Below are positions 3,346-24,644 of a stretch of 64,000 bases of DNA, in pieces. This DNA comes from an uncultured Planctomycetota bacterium. GTDB taxonomy: Bacteria; Planctomycetota; Planctomycetia; Isosphaerales; Isosphaeraceae. The translations under genes and the position numbers were made by a program. Positions within the stretch are counted from its first letter, which is position 1. The number at the start of each line of letters is the position of its first letter. The stretch lies in the NCBI GenBank assembly GCA_963823665.1, contig CAWGMQ010000004.1:2720001-2784000 (forward strand), in the 5' to 3' direction. Below the pieces are notes generated by a model. The model saw nothing but the letters and a program-made list of their open reading frames with translations, did no database searches and was not told where the DNA came from.

Positions 3346-6300
3346 TCACACGCTTTCGGATCCGGACGTCACGCTGAATGCTCGGCCCACTTGGTGGTTC
3401 TGCCCCGGCACATCGAATCGCGGTGGCCCCGGAGTCGGCTCGAGCCCCGCTTGATCTGTTCGGATGTACCCTCCCAGGCTCCAGACCAGCTCGCAGTTGT
3501 GCTGAAGGTCGAGCATGGTCAGGGTCTGGACCGCGCGGAGAACCAGGATCTGGTCGCTCCACAGGTCGGTTCGCAAGAGGACGTCGCGCATCCTAGACTG
3601 CACGACAGCCCATGGATCGCGTGAGCCCTGGCCCAGCACCACTTTGACCCAGCCGCGGGTCATTCGGCGGTGCCGCTTGAGGTAGGCTGTGATTCGCCGG
3701 CGGGAGGCTGCGTCGTAGGATGGAAAGCACGGTAGCTCGAAGAGGTCGGAAAGCGGCCGCCTTTTTCGCCGATGTACGGGATGCCAGAGTGTGCGGATAT
3801 TGACGATCGGATCGGGCAGCCTGGGCGGGAGCTTCCTCACGTCTTGCCGCCCATCGCAGGAGTACTCCATAACGGCCTTGAGCCCCTCGAGCGACAAGGC
3901 AAGGGTCGAGATATCGTCGTGGTCAAGGATGCAGGCTGCCACCAGCGCGCGCAGGGCCTCGCCGCCGCGATTGGCCAGGTAGGGAATCTCGTCGGCGAGA
4001 TAACCGGGGAGCAAGTCGAACGTCCAGCCGAAGCGATGCACCCAGCGGTGCACCCATTCCAGCCGCTTCTGATGCTGCCGGCGAAACTGCTCGGCGATGA
4101 TGCGGTCCTGCCGTGTCGCCCCGATGTAGTCGAGATCGGCCTCCATGAGCAGCTCGCCCGCGAGGCTTTCGGGCGCGGTCGGAAGCTTGAGCCCCATGTA
4201 CTCGACGTCGAAGCGGGCTCGCAGCCAGAGCGAGCCCATGAAGACAGGCTTGCGCATGCGATGGATCTTGCGCAAGGCGGCCCAGTAGGCATCAGCCGGA
4301 ACAACCTGCTGGCGGTCGACCTGAGGATGCAGGATCTCGTGCACGACACGCAGAATGCTGCGGAAACCGGCCGCGACGGCCTTTCCCAGCACGGCGAGGA
4401 GGACGAGAGGAAGCAGCACGATACGCCCGCCGGAGAGGTGGGCCTGATAGAATCCGAACGGGTTGAACGTGCGAGCAGTCAAGGGCAGCTCGTGCAGTGG
4501 AAAACTGCGGAAAGCCCGCCGGACATTCTGCTGCCGGTCGCGCCTCACAAGCTCGGCAACCTGCGGCCCGAAGCGAGCGTGAATCTCACAATCGCGCTCG
4601 GGGTCGTCTCCGAGAAAGTCGACGGCGGTGAACTCGACGGTCTCCAGAAAGGCCCCGGCCTCTTTGCGGAGGGTGCCTTCCGTTCCCACACGCGCGGTTT
4701 CACTTGCTCCAACCCGATGGATAGAGCTACCTTCCGGTACCGTATGGGGCGTCGAGAGCTCGGGCACCCATACCTCATCCGGGTCGATCTTCAGCCGGTC
4801 CGCCAGCCAGTTCCGGAACTTCTGGCGTACCGAAGGGGGCGAGCAGGCCAGGCGATCGAGCGGGATGGCGTGGCGGTTGTAGTCGAGCAAGAGCAGGGCC
4901 GTTTCCTGCACGAGCATTCGCGTGATGTAGTTGAACCAGAGATACGGGCCGCCGAAAAGGCCGCCGGCGCGGCTCAAGTCGAGCCGGTCGATGGTGCGGC
5001 CTTCTCGCAGCAAGTGCCCCAGGTGACTTCGCCGCAGGTTGCTGAGAGCCAGGTTCCCCAGGAGCTGAACCGAAGCCTTGGTGTCGCTGCGGTGGAGCGG
5101 CGATCCGTCGAGATAGTCCTGGTAGAGCAAGCGAACGTTCCGCAGGAACGCCAGCTCGCGGTTCTCGAACCAGGCAGGTTCGCTGCCTCCGGCTTCCTCG
5201 TCATGACCGGAGCCGTTGCGATGGATGGGTCTGTCGTCCGACTGCCGCAACAGCAGCTCGGGATTGATCACTCGCTGGCTGAGAAACTGCGAATCGTGGT
5301 CGCGACGGCGGGATTTGAGGGCCTTCGTGTGAGTGGCAAATTGGGCCTCGACCACCCGCTCGCAAAAATCAGCCGACTGATTGGCGATCTTGCGAAACCA
5401 CGCGCCGAGCAGCCAGAAAACCAGACAGATCACCCCGAGGATGATCACCGGCCAACCCAGGAGGGTCTGCACCTTGTCGACGACCTTCACGAACGGCGTG
5501 AAGAACGGCAGCGAGTTCACGATCAGGTAAAGAAAGAGAAACGCCGATCCCAGCCAGAGCAATCGCTTGGCGGGTGTCCGCGTGGCGTTGACGATCGTCG
5601 CACCCAGCCGGTCCAGGAAAACGGGAGGCGACAGCGTGCCGTGCAGATCGGCGAAGAAGTAGACGACGTCGAGGCCGCGCTGCATTGAGTGGCCGAGATA
5701 ATTGGCAGCCAGCGCCACGGCTTCTGCCGGGCTTTTTTCGCGGTAGGCAACCAGTCTGCGCACGAACGGCAGGCGTCGCACCAGGGGAAGATCGAAGAGG
5801 CGGACATAGCGATCGATTGCTTTCACGGCCGCGGGCCCGATCTGGTCGAGTAGCCGTTCCGGGGTCATCTGGATCAGGCGCTCGACGACCGCCTCGACGG
5901 GTATTTCGCGGCTCGTTGTTTCCGGAACGTCATCGGCCAGGGCAGGATCCGGCAAGCTCTCGACCCGGCGCTCCAGATCGAAGAGCACCCGCTCAGAAAA
6001 CCTGCGAGCTTGGTCGCGGTCCAGCCGCGCCACCGCGCTAACGCGGGCGTGCTCCAGCTCGCTGCGGAGAGCGATCAAGCGATGGCGCTCGCTTGATTCC
6101 GGTTTCTGGGCGTGCAGCGGCTCGAATAGCACGATGTTGCGGTTGAGGAGTTTGCCCATGCGGCGCACCAGACGATCGAGGAGGCGCAGCAGCACGAGCC
6201 CGACCCGCGCGAGCCTCAAGACCGGCAGGATCACCCGCAGAAACCGGAACGACCGGGCCACCCGTGCGATCCGGGCCGGCCCCCACCACGCCGAGCCGAG

Positions 6301-7947
6301 GCCGTCGGGCGCGCTCAGCAGGTCGCCCATTCGTTCCAGCTCGATCTGATGTGCGACGAATCCGAAAGGCAGCGAGGCCAGCAGATCGATCAGGACGTGG
6401 CGGAGCAAATAGCTGGTCCGGTGCGGCGCCAGCGCGAGCTTGAGCGTGAATTCGAACAGGAACACCGAGCAAACCGCCAGATCGGCCCAGGCGAAGAACA
6501 CGTGCTGTGCAGCCGAGAGCCCGCGTGGGCGCGCGCGCTCCAGCACCACCTCGGCCGCGATCAGACCGAATAGCACGAGGATGAGCACGAGCACGGTGTT
6601 TTCGAGAGTCGCGACGAATCGGCGTCCGAAGATCTTCTCCATGCGCAGCGTGAGCAGTTTCTCCTGCCAGTCGCGCTCCACCTGGCGGCTGGCGCGGCGG
6701 ACCGACCGCGCCTGCGCTCGCATCCGCTTGCGGGCACGCTCATCGCGCTGCTCCGCCAGAGTCCGCGCCGCCGCCTCGAGATCGCTTTCGGTGGTCGCCT
6801 GTGCCCCGGGCTCACCGACGGGCTCTATACTCACGGCATCCGGAATTGGACCCGGCGATGGGAGGTAGATCTCCTCCGGAAAATCAAGGGCGGCGTGGCG
6901 GCATTGCTCTGCTCGCGGCCACTCGAGGCAAGCTTCCGAGAGCCGCGCCAGGTCGTCGCCGATCAGCTTGAGCCGATCAACCGCGCGACCAAGGCTGATA
7001 TCTTCGAGGAAGGCCATCGTTTCCCCCGCCTCGTCGAGCGCTAGCTGGACGACGCGCTCACCGGGGGCAACCCGGTCGCAGAGGGTAAGCGATGCCATTT
7101 GCTCTCTGGCGGCGAGGGCGAGCTCGTCCCGACGCCGGTCCAGCCTGTCGATCCAATCGGCGCGCTGGCGCGCCAGGCGTGCGTGGAATGCGTCCTGTTC
7201 ACTGCCGTGATCGGTTGCCGTCGCTTGCGCCCGTAATCGCGTCAGGTGAAACCGATGTCCCCAGAGGGCCTCGGGCGTGGAACCCTCGACGGGCCAGGCA
7301 AGCTCGCGCACGATCCGTCGCGAAAGCAAGATCGCCTGCAAGCGCTCGCAGCCTTGGTGGAGCGGGAGATGACTCGGGTCGGGATCATGCCCTGACGCGA
7401 CGTGCAGCGAGGCGCTCAAACGAGCGAGCTCGACGTCGAGCCACGCCGTTGCCGGATCGGGCGCTTCACGATCGAGCCGATCGATGACGGCGCTATGCCA
7501 CTCGAGCTCGTTGCGCAGTCCCTCGATCGCGAGTGCTTTGTGCAGCGGATCCGGGCCGACGGCGGCCGTGATCGACCGAACTGCCGATTTGATTTCGGCC
7601 AGCCATTCTCTGGACCGGCGGGCGAGGAGCTCGTGGCGCTCGTTGCCGGGGACGAGCGTGGTCATCTGGGAGTCGGCGACTTCCTGGAGCTCGGCGAGAG
7701 CAGAGAGCATTTCGCGGCGAGTGTTCTCGATTTCTTCACTCTGGACCGACGAATCAAGGCTTCGGCGCAGGATCAATCCAGTACCGATCAGATCGAGTCG
7801 GTTCGCCAGGCTCTCGGGTCGGGAATCGATGGGCGATTCACAGAGCTTCCTCGCCCGCTCGCACCACTCGGCCGCCTGCGCCTTGATGTCATCCAATCCA
7901 CTGCTCCGTTGCTCTGGCCGACCGGTGATTGAACACCGGCGGCGCAT
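3346..7947 (-). CDS. large membrane protein (1533 aa) with an ion-transport-type voltage-sensor domain (S1-S4) and no recognisable pore
   Basis: Uninterrupted 4.6-kb ORF. S2 DLAVCSVFLFEF, S3 IDLLASLPF, S4 RIARVARSFRFLR...RLAR. Start codon uncertain. Confidence 0.85.
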   Translation of the reverse strand: MRRRCSITGRPEQRSSGLDDIKAQAAEWCERARKLCESPIDSRPESLANRLDLIGTGLILRRSLDSSVQSEEIENTRREMLSALAELQEVADSQMTTLVPGNERHELLARRSREWLAEIKSAVRSITAAVGPDPLHKALAIEGLRNELEWHSAVIDRLDREAPDPATAWLDVELARLSASLHVASGHDPDPSHLPLHQGCERLQAILLSRRIVRELAWPVEGSTPEALWGHRFHLTRLRAQATATDHGSEQDAFHARLARQRADWIDRLDRRRDELALAAREQMASLTLCDRVAPGERVVQLALDEAGETMAFLEDISLGRAVDRLKLIGDDLARLSEACLEWPRAEQCRHAALDFPEEIYLPSPGPIPDAVSIEPVGEPGAQATTESDLEAAARTLAEQRDERARKRMRAQARSVRRASRQVERDWQEKLLTLRMEKIFGRRFVATLENTVLVLILVLFGLIAAEVVLERARPRGLSAAQHVFFAWADLAVCSVFLFEFTLKLALAPHRTSYLLRHVLIDLLASLPFGFVAHQIELERMGDLLSAPDGLGSAWWGPARIARVARSFRFLRVILPVLRLARVGLVLLRLLDRLVRRMGKLLNRNIVLFEPLHAQKPESSERHRLIALRSELEHARVSAVARLDRDQARRFSERVLFDLERRVESLPDPALADDVPETTSREIPVEAVVERLIQMTPERLLDQIGPAAVKAIDRYVRLFDLPLVRRLPFVRRLVAYREKSPAEAVALAANYLGHSMQRGLDVVYFFADLHGTLSPPVFLDRLGATIVNATRTPAKRLLWLGSAFLFLYLIVNSLPFFTPFVKVVDKVQTLLGWPVIILGVICLVFWLLGAWFRKIANQSADFCERVVEAQFATHTKALKSRRRDHDSQFLSQRVINPELLLRQSDDRPIHRNGSGHDEEAGGSEPAWFENRELAFLRNVRLLYQDYLDGSPLHRSDTKASVQLLGNLALSNLRRSHLGHLLREGRTIDRLDLSRAGGLFGGPYLWFNYITRMLVQETALLLLDYNRHAIPLDRLACSPPSVRQKFRNWLADRLKIDPDEVWVPELSTPHTVPEGSSIHRVGASETARVGTEGTLRKEAGAFLETVEFTAVDFLGDDPERDCEIHARFGPQVAELVRRDRQQNVRRAFRSFPLHELPLTARTFNPFGFYQAHLSGGRIVLLPLVLLAVLGKAVAAGFRSILRVVHEILHPQVDRQQVVPADAYWAALRKIHRMRKPVFMGSLWLRARFDVEYMGLKLPTAPESLAGELLMEADLDYIGATRQDRIIAEQFRRQHQKRLEWVHRWVHRFGWTFDLLPGYLADEIPYLANRGGEALRALVAACILDHDDISTLALSLEGLKAVMEYSCDGRQDVRKLPPRLPDPIVNIRTLWHPVHRRKRRPLSDLFELPCFPSYDAASRRRITAYLKRHRRMTRGWVKVVLGQGSRDPWAVVQSRMRDVLLRTDLWSDQILVLRAVQTLTMLDLQHNCELVWSLGGYIRTDQAGLEPTPGPPRFDVPGQNHQVGRAFSVTSGSESV

Positions 7948-8132
7948 CGGTTCGAATTCTACTCGTTTGCCGCGCGCTCTTCCACGAACGGCACGGACGC
8001 TGGCGGCGAAGTTGGCTTGTCGATGGGTGGAACATGGCTTAATCTGCTGCTCTCGTGGATCGTCGTGAATCTACGGACGGGTGCCGGCCACGTCTGTCGA
8101 CGCAGTCAAACACCGACCATGGAAGGAAGCGA

Positions 8133-9512
8133 ATGCCGACCCCGGAATTGATGAGTGACGAGCTCGACCCCGGCTCCGGCGAGGGGAAATGGAATTCCTG
8201 GCTCAACAAGCTCGGCCTGCACCGGAGCGAGCTGCGCGCGTGGGCGATGTACGACTGGGCGAATTCGGCAGTGATGACCACCATCATCACCGCGGTTTTT
8301 CCCATCTACTACGAGAAGGTCGCCTGCAAGGGAGTGGTCGGGGTCGAGGAAGCCACGCAACGGTATGCAACCGCCACCGTGATCGGCATGCTGATCATCG
8401 CGCTCTTGTCACCCGTGCTGGGAACGATTGCCGACTTGAAGGGCGACAAGAAGAAAATGCTGGGCGGATTCATGGCTCTGGGGGTTTCCTCGGTCGCCGG
8501 GATGTTCTTCATCTACCAGGGACAATGGCTGCTGGCTTCCGTCCTTTTCATCCTCGCCAATATCGGCGTGAACGGCAGCTTCGTCTTCTACGACGCTTTG
8601 CTGCCGCACGTTGCGGGCAAAGACGAGATCGACCGGGTTTCGACGGCTGGCTACGCCTTTGGCTACATCGGCGGCGGCACTCTGCTGGCGATCAACCTCG
8701 CGTGGATCATGAAGCCCGCCTGGTTCGGTCTACCGACGGTGTCAGATACTTCGGCGCAGGGCACACTGCCCACGCGTCTGGCATTCCTTTCGGTCGCTGT
8801 CTGGTGGCTGGTTTTCTCGATCCCGCTGTTCCGCCGGGTGCACGAGCCAGCGGCCTCCGCCGCCGGGATTACCGAACGATTTCCGGTGCGGGCTGCATTC
8901 GCGCGCCTGTGGGAAACAGCCCGCGGCTTGGGCTCGCACCGTCAGGCCTTCCTGATGCTGCTCGCTTTCCTGATCTATAACGACGGCATCGGCACGATCA
9001 TCCGCATGGCGTCGAGCTATGGCGCGGTGATCGGCATCGATACGACGGTCATGATCGCCTCGATCGTGATCGTGCAATTCGTCGGGATTCCGTTCGCCTT
9101 CCTCTTTGGAATGCTGGCCCAGCGCATCGGCGCCAAGCGCTCGATCGGAGTCGGGCTGGTCGCCTACATGGCGATCTGCGTCCTCGGCTATTTCATGACG
9201 AGCGCGATCCACTTCGTGGCGCTGGCGGCCCTGGTGGGGGCGGTGCAGGGGGGAACGCAAGCCCTGAGCCGCTCGCTCTTCGCCAGCATGATTCCGCGCG
9301 ACAAGTCGGGCGAATTCTTCGGGTTCTTCGGTGTCGCTGAGAAATTCGCCGGGATCCTCGGGCCGGCCGTGTTTTCGGTCGCACCCAGCCGCACTGCCAT
9401 TCTGGCCGTGATCGCATTCTTCATTGTCGGTGGCTTGATGTTGTTCTTCGTCGACGTCGCCGCCGGCCAGCGCAAGGCGCGGGCCGACGAGGTTGGGCCA
9501 CTCTTCGAGTGA
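8133..9512 (+). CDS. MFS transporter, UMF1/ATG22-like family
   Basis: AWAMYDWANS, FYDALLP, DRVSTAGYAFGYIGG, QGGTQALSRSLFA and EFFGFF motifs; about 12 hydrophobic segments. Confidence 0.9.
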   Translation: MPTPELMSDELDPGSGEGKWNSWLNKLGLHRSELRAWAMYDWANSAVMTTIITAVFPIYYEKVACKGVVGVEEATQRYATATVIGMLIIALLSPVLGTIADLKGDKKKMLGGFMALGVSSVAGMFFIYQGQWLLASVLFILANIGVNGSFVFYDALLPHVAGKDEIDRVSTAGYAFGYIGGGTLLAINLAWIMKPAWFGLPTVSDTSAQGTLPTRLAFLSVAVWWLVFSIPLFRRVHEPAASAAGITERFPVRAAFARLWETARGLGSHRQAFLMLLAFLIYNDGIGTIIRMASSYGAVIGIDTTVMIASIVIVQFVGIPFAFLFGMLAQRIGAKRSIGVGLVAYMAICVLGYFMTSAIHFVALAALVGAVQGGTQALSRSLFASMIPRDKSGEFFGFFGVAEKFAGILGPAVFSVAPSRTAILAVIAFFIVGGLMLFFVDVAAGQRKARADEVGPLFE

Positions 9513-9521
9513 GGCGTCAGG

Positions 9522-10376
9522 TCAGGCTCTCGTCAAACGCTTCTGCCAGTGGGAAATGCTAATGGCCCAGGAAACGCCCAGGTAGAACGCGGGATAACAC
9601 AAGGATATCCAAGCCCATTGCAGGGTCGATGCGCTCGAGACGGTCTGCGTCTCTCCCGGAAGCTTCCAGATCAGCCAGAAGAACAGAACCGTCCAGGGAA
9701 TGCCGAGCACGGTTGCCAGCCGATTGATCCTGCCCGGCTGTGACGGGTAGAGGTGGCGCGTGGGCACGAAGGTCAGTATCGCCAGCACGACGATGACGCC
9801 GAGCGACGGCCATGGACCTAGCGGCAGCATATAGAGGTAAAAAGCGACGACGTTCCAGAGGGAGGGGAAGCCGAGGAAATAGCCATCGTCGGTCTTGGCC
9901 TGCACCTGGCAAAAACCGTACGCGCTGGCGACGAGCGGCAGGAACAACCAGGGTTCCTGACCGGGCGGCAAGATTCCGGCCCGCCAGATCAGAAGCAGTG
10001 GAAGAAACGTGTAGGTGAGAAAGTCGACCAGGTCATCGAGCCTGCGGCCGTCGAAGCTTGGAACGACTTCCTTGATTCGCACCTTGCGCGCCAGAAAGCC
10101 GTCGGTCGAATCGACAATGGTCGCGGCGGCCATCAGCAGAAACGACCATCGGAACGCTGCGGGACCCCCGTCGACCAAAAGCACGGCGATCAGGCCGGCC
10201 GCGATCAGCCCGAGTGCCGTATAGGCATGCACGCACCATCCCAGGAAGCGCTCGACCGTTCCTGCCGGTCTGGCGGGCCGGGGATGGGCGGGTTTCTGCC
10301 GTTTCCGGACCTGAAGCTTGACCAGCGTCGCCGACCGTCTGGCGATCCTTCTTAGCCCGGATTCATTGGTTCTCAT
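9522..10376 (-). CDS. pcs: phosphatidylcholine synthase-like CDP-alcohol phosphotransferase
   Basis: VHAYTALG N-terminus, CDP-alcohol motif DSTDGFLAR...FDGRRLDDLVDFLTY, and KTDDGYFLGFPSLWN, all typical of Pcs. Its ATG overlaps the permease stop codon. Confidence 0.85.
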   Translation of the reverse strand: MRTNESGLRRIARRSATLVKLQVRKRQKPAHPRPARPAGTVERFLGWCVHAYTALGLIAAGLIAVLLVDGGPAAFRWSFLLMAAATIVDSTDGFLARKVRIKEVVPSFDGRRLDDLVDFLTYTFLPLLLIWRAGILPPGQEPWLFLPLVASAYGFCQVQAKTDDGYFLGFPSLWNVVAFYLYMLPLGPWPSLGVIVVLAILTFVPTRHLYPSQPGRINRLATVLGIPWTVLFFWLIWKLPGETQTVSSASTLQWAWISLCYPAFYLGVSWAISISHWQKRLTRA

Positions 10377-12013
10377 GATCGAGCCGCTTCTGGTTCACCC
10401 GATGCGTACAGGCCGATCCAGCCGTTTTCAACCGTTTGATTCTTCGATTCCGCGGGATTCTGGTCAAGGTCTTCTGCTGCAGCGTGCACTGCCACGATGC
10501 CGGTCCGCTTTCGTTGATAGAGAACATAATACGCAGCACCGGCTGCAACGAGCGAGAGGGTTGCCAGGGGCGCCGCAAACCGGCCCAAGGGATGCTCCCC
10601 GTAAATCTCCAAGCGCGGCCAGCTCATATTGATCACGACGAACAGCCCCCAAAGCGCGGCGGCGACGTTGACCGGCAAACCAAATCGCCCCAGAGAGAAA
10701 TACGCCCGCGGCGCGGCGGCATTGGGTCCATTGCGTGGAGCATCTTGGCGATGCAGGGACGAGCCCGGTGCAGGCGCAGGTGATTTTCGCCGCGATATCA
10801 AGAGTGGAATGGTGACCATCAGATATGCCAGGTTGGCCCAGATGACGGCCATCGAACAGAGCAATTCGATCACGTTGGGAAGGCTCGAGTTCACAATCAG
10901 GATCGCGCCGGCCAGGAAACCGATCACGAGCGCAGGGACACCCGGCGCCCGGGTGCGCGGCGAGACGTGCGAAAGCACGTCGGCAAAGGGAAGGTTCCGA
11001 TCGCGCGCCATCGCGAACATCAGCCGGACTGCTGCGGCGTGTACGGCCAGCGCGCACACGAAGACGGCGAAGATCACTTCAACCAGGAGCAGGACACCGA
11101 GCTTATCTCCGAGGACATTTCTGACCAGAAACGGCAGGCCGCCCGAGATCGTGCCGAGCTCCTCGAGAGCGGGGTCGCTGACGGCGAGAATGCCGAAGAG
11201 AATGAGCAGCGCGCCCGCGAGCCCGGCGGCGGCGAGTGCTCGCAGGATCGCCCAGGGCGCGCGCCGGCGCGGGTCGCCGGTCTCCTCGGCGAGGGCCCCT
11301 GCGGTGTCGAACCCGTACATCACGTACGACGCCATGAGGGCAGCCGCCAGGAAAGGGCCGAGGTAGCCGAAGGGTTGTCCTTGTCCTTTCCCCATCGTGT
11401 CGAACAGGATCACCGGCCCGCGGCGAACTCTGAGCGCGAGCAGCACGATCAAGAGTCCCACTCCGCAAAGCTCGGCGATCACGCCGACGTTGTTGATTCG
11501 CGCGAGATGCCGCACTCCGATCGAATTAATCAGTGTCGAGACTGCGATCAGCGCGCAGCCCAGCAAGACCGCGTTCAAGGCCGCGCTCGAGCGATCGCCG
11601 GGATCACCGACGAGCTGAAACGCAGGCGCGATCTGAGGCAAGGTCGCCTGCAAGGCCAGGGCGACGGCAGCCAGGCTGATGACCGATCCCGAGAGGTACA
11701 CCCAGCCCGCCATCCAGCCGATCGAACGCGAGCTGAGCCTGGCGGACCATTGATAGACACCGCCCGAGAGGGGATATCTTGCCGCGAGCTCCGCGAAACA
11801 GAGAGCGACTGCGCCCTGGCCAAGGAAGACGGCCGGCCAGGTCCAGTAAAAGGCCGGCCCCCCCGCGCGGTATCCCAGATAGAACGTCTGGAAGACGCCC
11901 GTCAGGACCGAGATGTACGAAAACCCCGCGGCAAATGACGAAAAGCTGCCGAGCGTCCGGTCGAGAACCTGCTTGTAGCCGAAGGTGGCGAGGTCTCGAG
12001 TGTCGTCCGACAT
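10373..12013 (-). CDS. APC-superfamily permease of amino acid/choline transporter (ACT, Hnm1/Uga4-like) type; probable choline/ethanolamine importer
   Basis: FGYKQVLDR...FSSFAAGFS, GGPA, AELAARYPLSGGVYQW, GFD...LAEET and RLMFAMARD motifs; about 12 TM helices. Substrate inferred from operon context. Confidence 0.85.
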   Translation of the reverse strand: MSDDTRDLATFGYKQVLDRTLGSFSSFAAGFSYISVLTGVFQTFYLGYRAGGPAFYWTWPAVFLGQGAVALCFAELAARYPLSGGVYQWSARLSSRSIGWMAGWVYLSGSVISLAAVALALQATLPQIAPAFQLVGDPGDRSSAALNAVLLGCALIAVSTLINSIGVRHLARINNVGVIAELCGVGLLIVLLALRVRRGPVILFDTMGKGQGQPFGYLGPFLAAALMASYVMYGFDTAGALAEETGDPRRRAPWAILRALAAAGLAGALLILFGILAVSDPALEELGTISGGLPFLVRNVLGDKLGVLLLVEVIFAVFVCALAVHAAAVRLMFAMARDRNLPFADVLSHVSPRTRAPGVPALVIGFLAGAILIVNSSLPNVIELLCSMAVIWANLAYLMVTIPLLISRRKSPAPAPGSSLHRQDAPRNGPNAAAPRAYFSLGRFGLPVNVAAALWGLFVVINMSWPRLEIYGEHPLGRFAAPLATLSLVAAGAAYYVLYQRKRTGIVAVHAAAEDLDQNPAESKNQTVENGWIGLYASGEPEAARS

Positions 12014-12021
12014 GCCGGGGA

Positions 12022-12832
12022 TCAGCCTTTTCTGGTCGCCAGGAAATTGCCCCACTTCATGTCGCCGTTCTTGCAGAAGCCGACTTTCATCTCCCAGCGA
12101 TCGACCAGGTACTTCAAGTCGGCCTCGGAGAACGCCGCAAGGAACTCGCCCGAATGATCGACAAGTCGAGCGGTTTCACTGTTCAAAATCTCGACGAATC
12201 GCGCAGTCGCGTCGTCGACGACCACGTCGCTAAAACCCGCGGCCTCGAGCAATCGGCCGTATTGCGCGGGCTCGACGACGTTATAGCCGGTGGATTCGAT
12301 GTATTTCTCGAACTCCGGCGATGCGGGTGTCTTTCCCCGAGCGTAATCCGTGATCACGAGCCGTCCGCCGGGAGCCGAGAGGTCAAAAAGCCGCGAAAAC
12401 AGCCGGCCCTTGTCGGGAATATGCATGAACGCATCGCGGCTCCAGATGATGTCGAATGGCTCCGCGAACTTCTCTTCGAGCACGTCTCCCAGCACGAACT
12501 TGCACCGAGTCATTCATTCCGAGTTCCGCCGCGCGCTCGTGGGCCACGGCAACCATTTCTTCCGCCAGGTCGATGCCGATGACCTTGGCACCATACGTCT
12601 TTGCCAGGTGAAATGCCGCTCCTCCGATGCCGCTGCCGACGTCGAGCACGCGAGCGCCTGCTCGCAATGACGGGCTCAGCCGGGCGCACAGGTCGTCGGT
12701 CGTCCGGGCGCCGCCGGTGCTGATGTAACCCGCGCCGAAGATCATCTCGTATCTCAAGATGCTGCTGCGGCTGTACTGGCCATGATTGTCGAACTTGGGT
12801 CGGGCGGCTGGCGCCGCGGGGGTCGTCGTCAT
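12022..12832 (-). CDS. phosphoethanolamine N-methyltransferase (single-domain PMT/PEAMT-like); one frameshift near 12502
   Basis: Joining ORFs 12383-12889 and 12022-12513 gives QYSRSSILRYEMIFGAGYISTGG, VLDVGSGIGG, IWSRDAFMHIPDK, ITDY and WGNFLATRK. These are collinear with the plant PEAMT C-terminal domain and Plasmodium PMT as I recall them. Confidence 0.85.
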
Positions 12833-12920
12833 GTGGTCTCTCAAATTGAAAACCGGCCAGCTCGCTGGCGGATGATCTCGGTTCCGCAACTACCAAAGAC
12901 GGCGGGCCGGGATGCTTATT

Positions 12921-13898
12921 CTACTCGAGAGCCGCCCGCGCGGCACGATAAGCCTCGAGATTCTCGCGGGCGTAGCTCGCGTAGTCGAACTCGATGTCGG
13001 ACGCGACCGTCTGGATGGTCGACCAGAGCGTTTCGCGCAGAAGTGCGACAACCCGGAAGATCTGGAACTCAGCCAGGGCCGCCGTGGGCAACGGGCCCGG
13101 ATAGGCATCGACCAAGGCACGCTGTGCCGCGGCGCTCATTCCCGCAGCGGTCGTCGCATGCGCCAGATCGAAAAGTGGATGGCCCACGCCCGCGTATTCC
13201 CAGTCGAGCAGCCAGAACCGTCGGCCGTCGTCAATCACGTTCGCCGGCATCATGTCGTTGTGACAGAGGACCGGGCGAAACGGCGCGATCCGCCGTGATA
13301 GAGCGGTGATATCTTCAATAATCTGATTGATGTCGTGCGGAAGTGACGCTTTGAGCCGCGCCGCGGTGTGCGCATAGGTGCGCACGGTCTGAAACGCGCA
13401 GAAATAGAGAACCTCGCCCGTCAAGACGGCCCAACCTTCGTGCAGGTGGCCAAGCAGGGCCGCCAGGCGAGGGAGCATGGCCGGCTCGCGAATTGTGACT
13501 GGATCAAGTGTTCGACCGTCGACGAACCGGGTCACCAGGAGCCCGCGCTCGTGATGAATGATCTCGGGCGCCAGACCGCGAAGGCTGGCGGCCTGGTGAC
13601 ACACCATTTCGTTCCGCCGGTCGACCCCAACGAGCGGGAGCTCATGGCAGATGCGAGCAAAATACGATTGCCCTCCCGTTCGAACTGCGAAGTTGCGGTT
13701 CGAGAGCCCGCCCGAGATCGGCTCGATCGAGAACGCACCGCGCACGAGACCAAGCTTCCGAAGCCGATCGATCAGCTCTCGCTCCGGGCGATTGCGCCGA
13801 CGCCTGAAAGGAAGCCGCTGTACACCCAGCGCACGCTTCCAGTCGAGCTTTAGCTTGGCGACCGGACCGCCGTGGTTCCGGTCCGGCGCAAACAGCAT
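12921..13898 (-). CDS. choline/ethanolamine kinase (APH/choline kinase family)
   Basis: GGLSNRNF, Brenner motif CHNDMMPAN, choline-kinase motif DWEYAGVGHPLFDLA. Start codon uncertain. Confidence 0.88.
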   Translation of the reverse strand: MLFAPDRNHGGPVAKLKLDWKRALGVQRLPFRRRRNRPERELIDRLRKLGLVRGAFSIEPISGGLSNRNFAVRTGGQSYFARICHELPLVGVDRRNEMVCHQAASLRGLAPEIIHHERGLLVTRFVDGRTLDPVTIREPAMLPRLAALLGHLHEGWAVLTGEVLYFCAFQTVRTYAHTAARLKASLPHDINQIIEDITALSRRIAPFRPVLCHNDMMPANVIDDGRRFWLLDWEYAGVGHPLFDLAHATTAAGMSAAAQRALVDAYPGPLPTAALAEFQIFRVVALLRETLWSTIQTVASDIEFDYASYARENLEAYRAARAALE

Positions 13899-14053
13899 CG
13901 ATTCGTGTTCGTTGGAAAACACAGAATTGTTTCCAGGCGGTGGGGGCGTCAGCGTGAACGCGCTGCGGTCAATTGAACGATGGATTATACTGCCCGGGAG
14001 AATGCCTACGCGATGGTCAAGCCGTCATTTCGGATCCGGATAGGAGGAATCGC

Positions 14054-14866
14054 ATGGCGACTGCCCCCCACCGCCCGCGGGCCCGCAAGGTTGAATACCC
14101 TACCAGCGACGGAAAGCCCATGGCGGAAACTGAAATCCACCGTGACGACATGATCGACCTGATCCAGACGTTGCAGCACCACTATGCCGACGCGCCGATG
14201 GTTTGTGTATCAGGCAACATGCTGATGTACTATGAGGAAGGAAATCGTCGCAAGCATCTCTCTCCGGACGTCTTCGTCGTGCGGGGCATTCTTAACAAGG
14301 AGCGCAAATATTACCTCATCTGGGAGGAAGGGAAGGCGCCGGATGTGGTGATCGAGATCACCTCGAAAACGACCAAACGCGAAGACCAGGGGAAGAAACG
14401 CGACCTCTATCGCGACGTCTTGCGCGTGCCGGAATACTTCCTGTTCGATCCGACGGAAGATTATCTGAAGCCGCCGCTGCAAGGTTTTCGTCTGGAGGGC
14501 GACGAGTACATTCGGATCGAACCCATCGACGGCCGGCTTCCCAGCGAAGTTCTCGGGCTACACCTCGAGCGAGATGGAAAAGAGCTCCGGCTCTACGATC
14601 CCGAAATGCGCTCTCGGCTGTCGAAACCCCGCGAGCGACAAAAAGCGGCCGAGCAGCGAGCGGAGACGGCCGAGCAGCGAGCGGAGACGGCCGAGCAGCG
14701 AGCGGAGACGGCCGAGCAGCGAGCGGAGACGGCCGAGCAGCGAGCGAAGACGGCTGAGCAACGAGCAGAGGCTGAGAGCGTTCTCAATCAAAAGATCGCC
14801 GCCGAGAAGGAAGAACTCGAGCGCGAGCTAGAAGCTCTCCGCCGGAAGTCGAGCTCGGGCCATTAA
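14054..14866 (+). CDS. Uma2 (DUF820) family PD-(D/E)xK putative endonuclease with C-terminal coiled-coil repeats
   Basis: YPTSDGKPMAET, SPDVFVV, PDVVIEITS and VPEYFLFDP motifs; AGGAGG RBS upstream of the ATG at 14054. Confidence 0.92.
   Translation: MATAPHRPRARKVEYPTSDGKPMAETEIHRDDMIDLIQTLQHHYADAPMVCVSGNMLMYYEEGNRRKHLSPDVFVVRGILNKERKYYLIWEEGKAPDVVIEITSKTTKREDQGKKRDLYRDVLRVPEYFLFDPTEDYLKPPLQGFRLEGDEYIRIEPIDGRLPSEVLGLHLERDGKELRLYDPEMRSRLSKPRERQKAAEQRAETAEQRAETAEQRAETAEQRAETAEQRAKTAEQRAEAESVLNQKIAAEKEELERELEALRRKSSSGH
14648..14770 (+). repeat. 21-bp coding tandem repeat (AEQRAET)n
   Basis: GCCGAGCAGCGAGCGGAGACG as 4 perfect copies plus 2 degenerate copies. Confidence 0.95.
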
Positions 14867-17800
14867 TTACCGCCGGCCCATCCGCTCAAGCGCCCTGCCA
14901 GCCATCGCACCCGCCAGAGCAGGGGACCCAGACCGCGATTTCCTCGCATCCACATCTGCCACGATCGACGGCGCCTGAAAGACAAACGGCGGCGACTTGA
15001 GTCGCACACGCACACCCGCCGAGCCGCCAATCGGCGGCAGAATCGTCCGTGCCGTTCCTCCCCGGCCTCGGCTGACCGAGCCGCTCAATATCGTCTTCCT
15101 GGCCACCGTGCCGATCAAATCCAGTTCGGCCGCATTTCCGGACGCGCTGCGAAACATCTCCATGAACCCGCCTTTGGTCAACTGGAGCGACACGACATTT
15201 CGCGAAGAGTCCGTATAGACGAGCCGTTTCCCAGCCCCAAACGTGACGTAGAGCGGAGTGCCGACAATCCCGTTGAAACCGATCAGCAAGTTGTTCGACG
15301 AGTCTGTCAATCCATTGTTCAAAAGCGTGCTCGTCTGCCCGTCAACCGTCACCTGCCAGAAGGTGTTGGGCGATAAGGGAACACTCGGGGTAATCGTCAC
15401 AGTCTGCGACGCCGCGTTGTAGACCGCCGAGCTCAGGCTGACGTAATTTCCGGCGCTGCTGCCGAAAGTTCCATTCGCTCCGGCCGAGTATGCGAAGTAA
15501 CCGAAGCTGGCCAGATTCTGCGCTCGCACGGCAACCAGCGGCTTGCTGAAGCCAAGCACGATTGCCGAGATCGCCTGGCCGCTCATGATCAACTGCTCGG
15601 AGGTCAGCCTGGGGGCGACCAGGTTGATCGGCGGTGGTGGTGGCGGGGGCGGTGCGGGTAGCTCGCTGATCGAGAGCGTCGCGGTGCCGATCGCCCCGAG
15701 CGTGGCCCCGTCGCCAGGCTGGCTGAGCGTCAAATTGACCGTCGTCGTTGCGGCCGACTGACTGAGATTGGGAAGGATCGTGATCGGAAAGGTCTGCAAC
15801 GAGTAAGGCTGGCCGGGCAGAAACGTCAATATTCCCGAAGCAGCAGCATATTGCTTGCCCGCGATCGCGGTGCCGTTGCTGGTGGCGTACGAGACCGTCA
15901 CGAGCGCGCTCAAGTTGCCCACGCGCTCGACCTGAATGTTTGCCACGCCCGCCGCGGAATTGACGGCATACTGCGCCGTCGTGAACTGCACGCTCACGGG
16001 CTGTGCAGTCAGGTCGGCTGCGAATTCCGAGGTATCGCCTGTGGCTAGATTTGTTGCGGTGGCGCTGACCCAGGTGTTCGCCGGAATGCCGTTTTGCGGT
16101 GACAGCAAGGCCACGGCCAATCCATTCGCGCCGGTCGTGACTGCCTGAGATCCCAGCAGGGTTTGCCCCTGGCCGTAACCGGTCGGATCGGGCGTCGTGT
16201 TGCTGAAGAACTGGATGAGGAACGACGTATTCGGGAGGCTGCTCAAGCTTGCCTGCGCTGCACCTGCTGCTCCGCCGACGACGGCAGTCATCACCGGCGT
16301 GTTCTCTAGATCGTTGGGCCCGACCCGCACACCCGGGCCATTTGGAGTGACACCACTGGGAGGGTCGCCCGCCGCGACCAGATCGATGCCCAGGTGTCCG
16401 TTCGAGAAGATGCTGTTTGAGAGGATCGAGTCGCCCGTTCCCGACTGCACGCTCACCCCTGCCGCCACGCTAAACGCAATCGTGTTCCCAGCTCCCGTCG
16501 CCGTTCCCCCGATCGTATTGTTCGAGGCGCCATTGCTCACGATCACTCCGTTGATCTCGTTGCCCAGATTCAGTGTGCCGCTCGTATCGGTTCCAACGTA
16601 GTTTCCTTCGATGACGTTGAGCTCGGCGGTCGAGCCGTCGAGGCGAATTCCCCACTGGTTGGCGGAGATCACGTTGCGCGCCGCGGAGCTCGTGCCACCC
16701 ACCGTGTTGCCAAAGGCACCTTCGATCAGGACCCCCTCGCCCGAGTTGCCCAGCTCGGCCGTGCCCGACTTGTCGGTGCCGACCAGGTTGCCCTCGATCA
16801 GGTTCTGGGTCGACGTGGCGCCGTCGATCTCGATGCCCACGAGGTTGCCCGAAATCACTTGCTCACTCTGGCTGTCTCCTTCGATCGTGTTGCCGGACGC
16901 GTTGTCGATCTGGATGCCGCTTTGGGCATTGCCCAGGTCGGCAGTGCCCGTGGAATCGGTGCCGATCAAGTTACCCTGGACGGTCACGCCCTGGGCCAAC
17001 GCACCGGAGATCAGGACGCCGATCAGGTTGTCCGAGATGACATTGCCGGTGCCGATCAGCGTGCCGGGCGAGTAGTCGGCCACACCGGCGCCCGACATTG
17101 CCGAGCGCCGCCGTGCCGTCCGCGGTCAAACCGATGATGTCGTTCTCGATCGAGTTACCTGTCGCGTTCGCGCCCGTCACGTAAACGCCAGCCCCTTTGT
17201 TCGAGGAGATCACGTTGCCATCGGCCGACGCGGGGCCGCCGACCATGTTGTCCGGCGCGTCGTCGATGCGCACGCCGTCGGCCGAATTGCCGGGCTGTCC
17301 GTTGCCGAATGCGTAGCCGCCTCCGGGTGCCGCGCCGATGTAGTTGGCCTCGACAAGATTACTCGTCGCACCGACTCCGATGATATGCACGCCAAATCCG
17401 TGATTCGCCGAAATGACGTTGCCCGACCCCGAGGCAGCGCCGCCGATGACATTGCTTGATGAATAGACGATTCCCGATGGATTGCCGGCGCTTCCCGACG
17501 ACTCGATGGCGACTCCGTCCGAACCATTGCCGGCTGTGAAATAGAGCCCGCTCGAGGCGGGCCCGATTACCCCGATCTCATTGCCAAGAATCTGGTTGCC
17601 CGATGCCCCGGGTATCAGCAAGACGCCTTGCCCCCCGTTGCCGCTGATCACGTTTGCGTCCTGGGGCTTGGTGCCGCCTACCGTCGCGTTGGCGGAGCCG
17701 AGTGAGATCCCTTCCTGAGTGTTGCCTAGCCCTCCTAGCGCCACGTTGTTCGGCGACGGGCAGCGCGATACCCGTCAGCGGATCGACGGGATAGACCAGA

Positions 17801-20800
17801 AACTCTCCGATCGCGTTGCCTTGGATCAGATCGCCTACGTTGTCCGGATCAGGAACGGAAACACCGATGCCGAAACCCTCGATGGCGAGTCCGCGAATCA
17901 CACTCTGCGAAGTGTCCAGAACCAGTCCGGTTGACCCGCCGGTCTGGTTGCCGTTCAAAATCACCCGGATTTGCGCATTGTCTCCATCGATTGCTGCGGT
18001 CGTATTGGTGACCGATGATATCAGCATTGGGTTACCGATCAGTGCTCCGCCGGCAGTGACCGTCTGGACATGTATGTTCGCGTTCGACCCCCCGGTGAGA
18101 TCGTTGGAGGCGATGAGATTCGGAATGGCTTCGTCCGCGTCGGCTCCCTGAAATGCTATCGCGAACGTGCCCGGAAGTGACTCCGTGACTGAAACGTTGG
18201 CATTTCCGAGCACAAGGGCGAGCGCCTGCTGGACCTCGTCGGCCGACGCCGAATAGGAAATGGGAGGCGTCGTGCCTACTGGCAGAGGCGCCAATGTGGA
18301 GAGGGTGAAGGTGCCGCCGGTGGGCTCTCCGCCGATGGTCAGATCCTGGACCGCCGAGCTGACCTGGTCGGGGTAGCGGTAAGGCACCGCGACATTGGCC
18401 TGGGTGAACCCGTCAATCGACACCGGATGCGTGATCGCTGGTAGCGGGCTGTCGAGCGAGATCGTCCAGATCTGGTTGACCGGGTCGAATCCGGGAACGG
18501 GAATGTTCTCGTTCCCGGCTGTCGACGCGGGGATCTCGAAGACGATGTCGTCAACTCCGGGATTGGGGTCGTCGTTTGCGGCGGTGATCGCGTCGCGCAG
18601 GGTTCCCGGGCCTGAATCACCCGTGTTGGTGACGACGAAGGTGAGCGGATTTCCGGTGGAGTTGTTGATGATGGTGAGAGTGGCGAGAGCGATCGAGCCC
18701 AGGGTGGCGCCGCCAGCGGGCTGGCTCAAGGTCAGGTTGACGGTGGAAAAAGTGGTTGGGCGGTTGGGGTTGGGCAGGATTGGGATCGAGAAGGTTGCGT
18801 CGGTCTGATCGGGCGCGAACGAGACGATGCCGGAGACGGCGGAGTAATCCTGTCCGGCAACCGCTGAGCCGCTGGAGGTGGCATAGCCGATCGAGACGGC
18901 CACGGCGAGGTTGCCGGAGCGCTGGATGTCGATCGAGGCTGTTCCAGCCGTGGACTGGACGGTGGGAGCGGCGTTCGCGAACGAGATGGTGACGGCTTGC
19001 GCAGCGACTGCGTTGGAGAATCCGGAGGAATCGCCGGTGGATTGGTTGGTCGCGGTGAGCGTCATGAAGGTGCCGACGGCCAGGCCGCTCGCGACGGTGA
19101 AGTTGATGGTCGCGGTGCCAGTGGCGCCGGTTGTCACAACGGTTGAGCCCAAGAACGTCTGCCCCTGGCCCACTCCAGACGGGTCTGGAATCGCGCTGCT
19201 GAAAAACTGGATCAGAAAGCTCGTATCAGCGACGCTCGTGAGCGAGCCCTGGACGTTACTCCCGGTGCCGCCACCCGCGACTCCGGTGACGGTTGGAGCG
19301 CTTTGCATGTGGTTGCCATTTTCGAGCGCGATTCCTTGCTGTCCGTTGAACGCGATGCCGTTCGAGAGGATTGAATCGCCCGTTCCCGATTCGACGAGCA
19401 CGCCCGCTTCAACGTTAAAGCCGATCACATTTCCCTGTCCGCCGCCTGTGCCGCCGATCGTGTTGTTCGAGGCGTTTGAGCTAAGGAGGACTCCGTTGAT
19501 TTCATTGCCAAGCGGGGCAGTGCCGCTCGAATCCGTGCCGACGTAGTTCCCTTCAATCAAGTTGCCGCTCGCGGCGGCGCCGTCGATTTGAATGCCACAC
19601 TGATTGGCGGAAATCACGTTGCGTGCCGCCGCCGTGGTGCCGCCGACCGTGTTGTTCGGGGCCCCTTCGATCAAGATGCCTTGGTTCGAGTTGCCAAGGT
19701 CGGCCGTGCCCGACTTGTTGGTGCCGATCAGGTTGCCCTCAATCAGGTTCCCAGTCGACGTGGCGCCGTCGATCTCGATTCCCGCGAGGTTGCCGGAAAT
19801 CACCTGCACTCCCAGGTTGTCGGCTTCAATCGTGTTCCCGGCCGAGTTGACAATTTGAATTCCGTCCTCGGCATTACCCAGATCGGCGATTCCTGTGGAA
19901 TCCGTGCCGATCAGGTTGTCTCGAACAATCACGCCGGTTGCCGTTGCACCCGAGATCAAGATTCCTGTCAGGTTGTCGGATATGACGTTGCCCGGTCCGA
20001 TCAGCGTTCCGGGCGAATAGTCGGCCACGCCGGCGCCGACGTTGCCCAGCACGGCGCTGCCGTCGGCGGTCAGTCCGATGATGTTGTTTTCAATCGAGTT
20101 GCCCAGACCATCGGCCCCCGTCACATAGACTCCAGCTCCTTTGTTCGACGAGATCACGTTGCCGTCGGAGTTTGCGGGCCCACCGACCTGATTGTCCGGC
20201 GCGTCGTCGATCCGCACCCCGTCGAGTGAATTGCCCGGCTGGCCGTTGCCGAAGACGTAGCCGCCTCCGGGGGCCGCCCCGATGTAATTTGCCTCGACGA
20301 GATTTCGCGTGGCACCGACGCCGACCAGGAGAACTCCGTAACCGTGATTGGCTGAAATGACATTGCCCGCGCCGGAGGCGGCGCCACCGATGACATTGCT
20401 CGACGCATAGACGATGCCGGCAGGGTTGGCAGCCGAGCCCGTCGATTCGACGTCGACCCCGTCTGCGCCGTTGCCGTCGGTGAAATAAACGCCACTCGCC
20501 GCGGGCCCGATGACCCCAATCTGGTTTCCGAGCACCTGATTTCCCGATGCGCCAGGCTCGATCAAGACACCTTGCGCACCGTTGCCGCCGATCACGTTGG
20601 CGTCTTGGGGCTCAGTGCCGCCGACCGTCGCGTTGGCGCAGCCGAGCAGAATCCCTTCCTGAGTGTTTCCCTGCCCGGCCAGAGCGACCGAGTTGGGCGG
20701 CGGAAGCGCGGTGCCCGCGAGCGGGTCGACCGGGTAGACCAGGTATTCTCCGATCGCGTTTCCCTGGATCAGATCGCCGACATTCAAAGGCCCTGGAATC

Positions 20801-23800: not shown

Positions 23801-24644
23801 TCAAGCACGAGCCCGGTTGCGCCTCCGGTCTGGCTTCCGTCCAGGATCAACCGGACCTGTGCGTTGTTGCCGTCGATCGCCGCCAAGGTGTTGGGCGCTG
23901 AAGTGATCTCGCTCGGCACCGAAAGAGAACCCGGCCGTTTCGGTTTCCACGTCGACGCTTGGGGTTGTTCCTCCCACCAGACTGGCATTCGGCAAGAGAT
24001 TCGGGACCGGCTCTCCTGCGTAAGCCCCTTGAAATGCGATCAACAGCGTATCCTGCGGTAGATTCCCGCCGCTGACTGCAACGTTGCCTGCACCGACGAT
24101 CGCCTCGAGGGCAGCCTGCACCTGAGCCTCGGTCGCTGTGATCGGAAGCGCGGCGGTCGTGCCGATGGGAAGGGGCGCCGACGTGGTCAACGTGAACGTG
24201 CCGCCAGTCGGTGCCGCCGAGGACGGTTAGCGTCTGCACCGCCGACGTGATCTCGTCAGAATAGCGATAGGGCACGTCATCATGCGCTTGCGAGAAGCCG
24301 TCGATCGAGATCGGATGGGTGATCACCGGTAAAGGACTATTGAGCGTGATCGTCCATGTTTGGTTAACGGGATCAAAGCCCGGCACCGGCACATTCAGCT
24401 CCGGCGCGGTCGAGGCCGGGATGTTGAAGACGATGTCGAATGGGTCCGGATCCGCGTCCTGGTTCGCGGCCAGGATCGCCGAGCGCAACGTCCCGGCGGC
24501 CGTCGAGTCGTCCGTCACGTTCACAACGTAAGGTTGCGACGCCAGCAACTGCCGTGATTCGAGCTTTTCGAGCCCGGGCGTCATGCGCCGTGCCTGTGCG
24601 AATCGGCGGGCCAACCTCATACGGCGGCGTGACGGGCGAAACAT
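14867..24644 (-). CDS. giant secreted parallel beta-helix / Calx-beta repeat protein (~3250 aa), split by 4 frameshifts (~24215, ~23932, ~17757, ~17092)
   Basis: Planctomycete export-signal-like LEKLESRQLLA; many NxIxGNxIG and NTIGG repeats; three Calx-beta-like domains (YATSNGSAVAGQDY...TF); poly-Pro linker and C-terminal domain. Five consecutive ORFs join in register when compared with the internal repeats. Confidence 0.88.
18385..22119 (-). repeat. internal direct repeat with 2943-bp period; near-identical blocks at ~18385-19176 and ~21328-22119
   Basis: The same sequence recurs at +2943 (for example 19141 vs 22084; antisense ORFs 18395/21338 and 18339/21282). Confidence 0.93.

Follow-up and report, generated by a model that had tools for sequence, protein, structure and literature searches.

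Results

A four-gene operon in an Isosphaeraceae genome

We analysed a 64-kb window of planctomycete DNA (the whole stretch G000:C4:2720001-2784000, whose relatives are named Isosphaeraceae) and, within it, an operon of four co-oriented genes that may form part of a bacterial route to choline and phosphatidylcholine (PC). The genome of the window, here labelled G000, measures 16.5 Mb in 12 contigs and is 92% complete; other genomes, extracted loci and proteins carry labels beginning with G, L and P, respectively. The genes are the following, in the order kinase, methyltransferase, permease, Pcs.

12921..13922, minus strand: choline/ethanolamine-kinase-family phosphotransferase, 333 aa from GTG 13922 or 325 aa from ATG 13898 (PF01633/PF01636)
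12022..12832, minus strand: single-domain homolog of phosphoethanolamine methyltransferases (PMT), about 269 aa, split by one extra base near 12499
10373..12013, minus strand: APC-superfamily permease, 546 aa (PF13520)
9522..10376, minus strand: CDP-alcohol phosphotransferase of the phosphatidylcholine synthase (Pcs) family, 284 aa, with NCBIfam Pcs models as its best matches

The recomputed spacings, an 88-bp gap between kinase and methyltransferase, an 8-bp gap between methyltransferase and permease, and a 4-bp ATGA stop/start overlap of permease and Pcs at 10373-10376, all match the initial annotation of this DNA. Among 11 relatives with a strong methyltransferase match, the locus contains Pcs in 10, the permease in seven, the kinase in five and all four genes in three, and the grouping is more than chance. 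A scan for promoters and terminators was uninformative.

The methyltransferase is a PMT homolog with a probably relocated arginine

Compared with the intact ortholog of a genome of the same genus, G001 (L023:6945-7754, 270 aa, 89% DNA identity), which supplies the residue numbers used below, the methyltransferase gene has one extra base near position 12499. This is probably an assembly error, since 40 of the 49 copies in the family are full length without an internal stop, and the housekeeping genes hisD, hisC and hisB of G000 are likewise broken by frameshifts. We found no sequencing run that matches the stretch at high identity and none spanning the frameshift, so that reads do not decide between an error and a real break.

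By sequence, the best match of the G001 ortholog among solved structures is Arabidopsis PMT2 (E 2e-65), and the PMTs of plants, nematodes and Plasmodium give the best matches overall (E 2e-65 to 2e-40), with the next family at 1e-19. Its structure model (predicted local distance difference test score 91) superposes on AtPMT1 with Z 37.0 and on PfPMT with Z 35.7 and a root-mean-square deviation of 1.5 Å over 252 residues. The top 15 structural matches are all PMTs (Z 31.9-37.0), and the first non-PMT follows at Z 29.0. Judged by modelled fold and closest homology, the protein is a true PMT homolog.

We counted residues in 120 listed close homologs, out of 585 matches at E 1e-30. Seven residues never vary (Gln19, Tyr20, Tyr28, Asp133, His137, Tyr163, Tyr183), and an eighth, Lys250, occurs in 119 of the 120. 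The set includes the equivalents of the PMT catalytic Tyr/His dyad and of Asp128 (Tyr20, His137 and Asp133, all present in 120/120), as well as those of the phosphate-binding Tyr27, Tyr160, Tyr181 and Lys247 (present in 120, 120, 120 and 119), the dyad and phosphate ligands being those named for Plasmodium PMTs in the available parts of two papers (PMC4357015, PMC6705855). The equivalent of the phosphate-binding Arg179 is missing: the position is Thr181 in 119 of the 120, and we therefore file the protein as a PMT-like variant rather than as a canonical member. Position 246, which is Gly in most eukaryote-type PMTs, is Arg in all 120 and lies one helical turn before Lys250, in helix 237-255 of the model.

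In a diverse set of 150 representatives at 50% identity, 112 had the full domain and were kept, while 38 partial ones were dropped. Arg181 alone occurs in 61 of the 112, Arg246 alone in 35, both in none and neither in 16. Most of the Arg246 proteins fall in three groups of a quick tree, so the residue arose in a few events and not in 35; outside these groups Arg246 occurs in 3 of 19 proteins without Arg181 and in 0 of 61 with Arg181 (Fisher p 0.012, not corrected for kinship). From sequence and model we infer that the arginine was relocated and phosphate binding kept. The enzyme likely methylates phosphoethanolamine to phosphocholine. A search for fusions of the methyltransferase to a partner gave a weak result, with only three long eukaryote-type matches.

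Among the matches listed from genome contigs, at least eight loci of the family and one Hydrogenedentales locus exceed 50% identity. The latter (L047:3823-4593, from a metagenome-assembled genome) is, among these matches, the closest methyltransferase outside the family, at 51%; it has the relocated Arg and a Tyr for the catalytic His, and its 6-kb contig contains neither Pcs nor kinase. A 21-member group of PMT-related methyltransferases, the RY clade, has the replacements Gln to Arg, Tyr to Ser and His to Tyr, and may represent phosphonate methyltransferases. P0234 and P0209, two Arg246 proteins from this more distant group, each carry a fused partner, in one case an aminoethylphosphonate aminotransferase and in the other a cytidylyltransferase.

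Kinase, permease and Pcs

The kinase matches PF01633 with E 4e-23 (82.7 bits, cut-off 29) and also PF01636, and is the sole PF01633 gene of G000. Its best PDB match is 3dxq (E 3e-22), and LicA (4r77) matches with E 2e-14. The HND..N (Brenner) and DWEY motifs are intact, with H221, D223, N228, D240 and Y243 invariant in 20 sequences. Among NCBIfam models GntI ranks first (176 bits, cut-off 357), followed by ThiK, and the nearest plasmid relatives sit in clusters with betaine transporters and oxidoreductases. We predict a salvage kinase that is optional in the family.

The permease belongs to the APC superfamily (PF13520, E 9e-45) and has no close solved structure. Its best NCBIfam model is TIGR03428 (478 bits, cut-off 740), while TIGR00907, which contains Hnm1, gives 160 bits, under its cut-off of 598. 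The initial annotation had named a choline/ethanolamine kinase, a PMT-like methyltransferase, an Hnm1-like permease and a Pcs-like enzyme; of these names, 'Hnm1-like' is loose. The permease is a predicted importer of choline or ethanolamine.

For the last gene, the only Pcs copy in G000, five NCBIfam Pcs models rank first at 101-145 bits; all of these scores lie under the cut-offs of the models, which are lineage-specific equivalogs (best NF045887, 145 bits against 300). The motifs HxxTxxG, DxxDGxxAR...G..LD..xD and GFPxxWN are present, and H50, T53, G56, D89, D92, G93, A96, R97, G110, D114, D118 and G169-W174 are invariant in 33 sequences. A sequence search for a solved Pcs structure found none. 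The enzyme likely condenses choline with CDP-diacylglycerol.

Two modules in the family

In a survey of 74 Isosphaeraceae genomes, each at least 85% complete, the methyltransferase was found in 49, Pcs in 55 and the kinase in 35 (at E 1e-15). Pcs is present in all 49 methyltransferase genomes, which supports the earlier proposal that phospho-base methylation feeds Pcs, and the methyltransferase occurs in none of the 19 genomes free of Pcs. The two genes lie within 4 kb of each other in 40 of the 49 and apart in nine. In 18 genomes no more than 3.2 kb separates kinase and methyltransferase; kinase, methyltransferase and Pcs stand together in 14 genomes, 11 of them with a permease-sized gap. A kinase match is absent from 15 of the 49, and PF01633 is absent from all five near-complete ones tested.

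In 27 of 33 Pcs loci the permease is the neighbour of Pcs, among them the loci of all five methyltransferase-free genomes examined; in four genomes the methyltransferase abuts Pcs directly, without an intervening permease. In split operons (G092, G098, G100, G061, G099) the permease-Pcs pair parts from the methyltransferase and from the kinase or decarboxylase where linked. Since the permease stays with Pcs, also where the operon is split, and since the active-site columns of Pcs are alike in genomes with and without the methyltransferase, the genes represent two modules, a permease-Pcs module for salvage of free choline and a module for phospho-base methylation. Because the permease tracks Pcs and not the methyltransferase, it more likely imports free choline. 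As an observation apart, an OlsC/LpxO-like lipid hydroxylase (L211:3342-4034) adjoins permease-pcs in G092.

The initial annotation had placed ethanolamine import and phosphorylation at the core of the system. The 15 methyltransferase genomes without kinase argue against this, as does the decarboxylase homolog found in 49/49 (see below). Its suggestion of an altered Pcs specificity is also disfavoured, no Pcs column separating genomes with and without the methyltransferase. The conservation of synteny that it proposed to look for holds within the family and stops there: neither the methyltransferase nor the decarboxylase was found in 400 other planctomycete genomes, for which six and four candidates per genome were scored, respectively.

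A predicted decarboxylase related to cobamide synthesis accompanies the methyltransferase

In G060, a CobD-like pyridoxal phosphate (PLP) enzyme is encoded between kinase and methyltransferase, and in G098 and G099 divergently from the methyltransferase. Its best model is TIGR01140 (237 bits, cut-off 291). This type occurs in 22 of the 74 genomes, G000 not among them, and seven copies, all in methyltransferase genomes, form a separate clade in a tree that took 17 of the 29 loci.

In G000 we found instead a serine-type decarboxylase homolog on another contig than the operon (C5:1719517-1720653; L301:8497-9654). It matches PDB 6oux with E 3e-107 (HisC and CobD at 5e-24 or weaker) and is 46% identical over 371 aa to Sulfurospirillum SMUL_1544/SmCobD, whose gene lies between cbiB and cobU and is annotated as 'norcobamide biosynthesis serine-O-phosphate decarboxylase'. 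On the strength of this annotation, we take SmCobD to make phosphoethanolamine from phosphoserine. The G000 type and SmCobD have in common an N-terminal GxHSPS...DACxLSNPYA block, and 30 of 30 copies of the serine type carry Ser before the PLP lysine, a residue (242) that presumably bears on substrate specificity. The predicted activity of the G000 protein is thus decarboxylation of L-serine O-phosphate. A HisC identity was rejected, as G000 has a separate hisC in a hisD-hisC-hisB cluster. Plant-type serine decarboxylase was also sought; the two PF00282 genes resemble diaminobutyrate decarboxylases. Elsewhere, proteins of about 830 aa fuse a serine-type decarboxylase domain to PF27533.

The serine type is present in 34 of the 74 genomes, a further match at 34% identity in G006 having been set aside. 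Of the 49 methyltransferase genomes, 33 (including G000) have the serine type and 16 the CobD-like type; none has both and none has neither. In B12 synthesis the decarboxylase product is used by CbiB, which is present in 16 of the 74 genomes, absent from G000, and missing from 31 of the 34 serine-type carriers. A decarboxylase without CbiB occurs in 40 genomes, 39 of which have the methyltransferase; the exception, G067 (980 contigs), has Pcs and the kinase. Conversely, six of the seven genomes with a decarboxylase and no methyltransferase have CbiB, and of the 19 genomes devoid of both methyltransferase and CbiB, 18 have no decarboxylase either. In an unrelated metagenome locus (L125) a PMT gene is directly followed by a PLP gene 53% identical to the G000 decarboxylase.

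Missing enzymes and the step from phosphocholine to choline

No Psd (PF02666) was matched in the 92% of G000 that is covered, and a Psd homolog appears in 18 of the 74 family genomes. None of the four PF01066 genes of G000 (PgsA, Pcs and two in glycan loci) is PssA. With the single PmtA model used (NF045881), G000 gave no match at 1e-15 and 0/74 genomes scored over the cut-off.

The initial annotation had pointed to a gap between phosphocholine and free choline, and the gap persists. No LicC is recognisable by eye among the nine PF12804 matches of G000 (PF01467-type enzymes were not searched), and PF06888, the PHOSPHO1-type phosphatase family, is absent from G000. Choline has one hydroxyl, which is occupied in phosphocholine, so the phosphate must come off before a canonical Pcs can act. 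Reversal of the kinase, which had been offered as a solution, is disfavoured: it cannot be general with 15 methyltransferase genomes lacking the kinase, and the five near-complete ones tested lack PF01633 altogether. A broad cytoplasmic phosphatase would be the simplest fill for the missing step. Two sets of candidates were set aside: the PhnX-like HAD TIGR03351, beside the decarboxylase in G098, has strong matches also in methyltransferase-free genomes and none in G000, and the four PF12710 matches of G000 (one HAD-IB, two generic HADs and part of a HAD read as secreted) are not linked to the operon.

PMT genes in other bacteria

Other bacteria also have PMT genes, of the type with the canonical arginine, and in six of the 13 best metagenome loci (of 80 returned) a choline-kinase-family gene adjoins them. 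Beside these pairs lie betaine-type ABC transporters or GcvT-type oxidoreductases, and Pcs is absent. Kinase plus PMT thus forms an older module, and this favours a phosphorylated substrate. One PMT lies on a Burkholderia plasmid beside a TauD gene; PMT homologs in some bacteria (Burkholderia) had reportedly been noted before, in work that our literature search did not return.

A set of clusters of a marine type was noted (L123:1023-2871, L124:5848-7693, L126, L127:1688-5780, L128, L132:2412-6744; L259, L261), with a canonical PMT beside a choline-kinase-family gene, a DeoR regulator, a betaine-type ABC transporter and a GcvT-type oxidoreductase that uses flavin adenine dinucleotide; roseobacter plasmid versions have the kinase, the oxidoreductase and an inositol-monophosphatase-family gene, without PMT. 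These clusters possibly encode enzymes that remove methyl groups from phosphorylated methyl-ethanolamines, or convert these into one another, by a route not yet described.

Other features of the window

Convergent on pcs lies a gene for an ATG22-like major facilitator superfamily transporter (8055-9512, plus strand), a neighbour in 15 of 33 loci that is part of another unit; in some relatives a peptidase-like gene precedes it. Further on, 3346-7947 (minus strand) encodes a 1533-aa protein with conserved counterparts in G001 and L042. Residues 450-598 weakly match an ion-transport domain (PF00520), with a score under the cut-off, and lie between large flanks without a known domain. On the other side, 14051-14866 (plus strand) encodes a Uma2-family protein whose C-terminal part carries a series of heptad repeats (AEQRAET x6); it is duplicated in G001. 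Positions 14867-23988 (minus strand) hold large, repetitive Gly/Asn-rich beta-helix-like proteins (2136 aa plus frameshifted pieces) with internally duplicated blocks, and several relatives have similar genes upstream of the operon.

Discussion

Proposed pathway

The genes, their homologies, residues and distribution are direct observations, from which we infer substrates, a phosphatase and a flux. We propose, with a probability of roughly two in three, that the family converts phosphoserine via phosphoethanolamine, phosphocholine and choline to PC, with salvage through permease and kinase. The predicted serine-O-phosphate decarboxylase, encoded elsewhere in the genome, would form phosphoethanolamine from phosphoserine, and the PMT homolog would methylate it three times to phosphocholine. 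A predicted phosphatase, which the chemistry requires, would then free choline, to be joined by Pcs to CDP-diacylglycerol. The permease would import free choline (perhaps also ethanolamine or its methylated forms) straight to Pcs, and the kinase, where present, would phosphorylate scavenged ethanolamine bases for the PMT to finish.

Several points weigh against this pathway. The methyltransferase gene is frameshifted in the G000 assembly, and every NCBIfam score lies below its curated cut-off. The serine-type gene is never next to the operon and stands alone in all 30 loci read, while in the CobD-like type the residue before the PLP lysine is Thr in 16/16 readable copies of 29, as in threonine-phosphate enzymes. 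In the loci read, no phosphatase gene was seen repeatedly next to any of the genes for kinase, methyltransferase, Pcs and decarboxylase. The arginine swap is not obligatory, as 16 of the 112 PMT domains do without both arginines. Finally, the surveyed genomes are kin: the serine type is probably the property of a subclade, and as its 33 methyltransferase genomes possibly form one clade, the match between decarboxylase and methyltransferase may represent only one or two events.

Alternative explanations

It could be that the system serves salvage only, with ethanolamine or methyl-ethanolamines being imported, phosphorylated, methylated and dephosphorylated, and the decarboxylase distribution a coincidence of ancestry. 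The proximity of the kinase in 18 of 49 genomes, the kinase-PMT pairs in 6 of 13 metagenome loci and the unlinked serine-type decarboxylase all agree with this. However, methyltransferase and Pcs are retained with no kinase match in 15 of 49 genomes (with no PF01633 in 5/5 tested), and decarboxylases without CbiB persist almost only in methyltransferase genomes (39/40), so we regard this explanation as unlikely.

Slightly less probable still is that the methyltransferase lost phosphate binding and converts ethanolamine, or its monomethyl and dimethyl forms, to choline for Pcs, any phosphatase acting earlier. This would account for Thr at the Arg179 position in 119/120 homologs, would make a phosphocholine phosphatase unnecessary and would leave the kinase dispensable. 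Yet the enzyme still has three phosphate-binding tyrosines and the lysine, with a new arginine besides, a co-transcribed kinase would deplete the substrate of the methyltransferase, and the fusions of the Arg246 proteins P0234 and P0209 point to phosphate or phosphonate substrates.

It is distinctly improbable that phosphocholine is made for something other than PC, or not for PC only (an osmolyte, surface decoration or another product), and that Pcs and the permease are a separate choline-salvage pair sharing the operon by chance. The nine genomes with the modules apart, the marine kinase-PMT loci with betaine transporters and GcvT-type oxidoreductases but no Pcs, and the phosphatase that was not found would fit; against it, the methyltransferase occurs in 0/19 Pcs-free genomes and abuts Pcs in four permease-less loci, and no LicC was found to activate phosphocholine.

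Least credible is that Pcs, a family of which some members reportedly accept methyl-ethanolamines, makes phosphatidylethanolamine (PE) or its monomethyl or dimethyl forms from free bases and that the PMT homolog methylates the lipid, replacing a PmtA that exceeds the cut-off in 0/74 genomes: the phosphate-monoester site is conserved, no membrane segment is predicted in the methyltransferase, and the major lipids given for the family member Singulisphaera acidiphila in the available part of a paper (PMC12493201) do not include PE or its monomethyl and dimethyl forms. Those named there are trimethylornithine lipid, PC, phosphatidylglycerol and phosphatidic acid, which fits PC without PE, although the medium of the species may supply choline.

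Comparison with known systems

The proposed route from phosphoserine to PC resembles the serine decarboxylase-phosphoethanolamine methyltransferase pathway of plants, nematodes and Plasmodium (AtPMT1/2, PfPMT, CePMT-2) in enzyme family, fold, Tyr/His dyad, and phosphate-binding tyrosines and lysine. Here the enzyme is bacterial and of a single domain, with the phosphate-site arginine relocated; entry is predicted via phosphoserine decarboxylation, whereas that pathway uses a serine decarboxylase and an ethanolamine kinase, and exit via free choline and Pcs instead of CDP-choline. With the Pcs pathway of Sinorhizobium, Agrobacterium, Brucella, Legionella and Pseudomonas the system shares a Pcs-family enzyme with intact motifs beside a transporter, which here is an APC permease and not ChoXWV. 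Known Pcs routes depend on uptake of external choline, according to the available text of two sources (PMC8371380, PMC6805115), whereas an internal source is predicted here. The Sulfurospirillum decarboxylase gene sits in a cbiB-cobU-cobQ operon, while that of the family stands alone.

The CDP-choline route of Treponema denticola (LicA, LicC, Cpt) and lic operons also bring together a choline-kinase-family gene, a transporter and a CDP-alcohol transferase, but here no LicC was found, the transferase is of the Pcs type and a PMT is present. Like the PmtA pathway, the proposed one comprises three N-methylations dependent on S-adenosylmethionine and ends in PC; it differs in methyltransferase family and in its predicted soluble substrate, and G000 is without detectable PssA, Psd and PmtA.

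Four bacterial PC pathways are listed in the portion available of one review (PMC6805115), and according to the available part of a 2020 review, evidence that prokaryotes synthesise choline de novo is lacking (PMC7368946). Our literature search, which covered few subscription papers and so is no proof, found no description of a PMT-Pcs system. Each enzyme family is already known; the combination, the phosphoserine entry, the Pcs exit and the arginine relocation appear to be new.

Implications

We consider it rather probable that Isosphaeraceae have a complete de novo choline pathway, of a kind so far undescribed in bacteria, with a cobamide-synthesis decarboxylase recruited twice, and are PE-less choline prototrophs that may supply choline to soils and peat. 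This is directly testable, since cultured, named carriers of the methyltransferase exist (Paludisphaera borealis, WP_076345837.1; Aquisphaera insulae, WP_165232183.1) and a gene deletion has been made in the family member Singulisphaera acidiphila, according to the accessible portion of the report (PMC12493201). If true, the pathway would offer a three- or four-gene means of making choline or PC in E. coli, an example of an active-site arginine swap, and a function for several hundred unassigned methyltransferases (585 matches at E 1e-30). It would represent a fifth bacterial route to PC and, by combining a methyltransferase of plant type with a decarboxylase from the B12 pathway and with Pcs, a way for bacteria to synthesise choline; it would also explain the presence of PC in a family where a Psd homolog shows in only 18 of 74 genomes.

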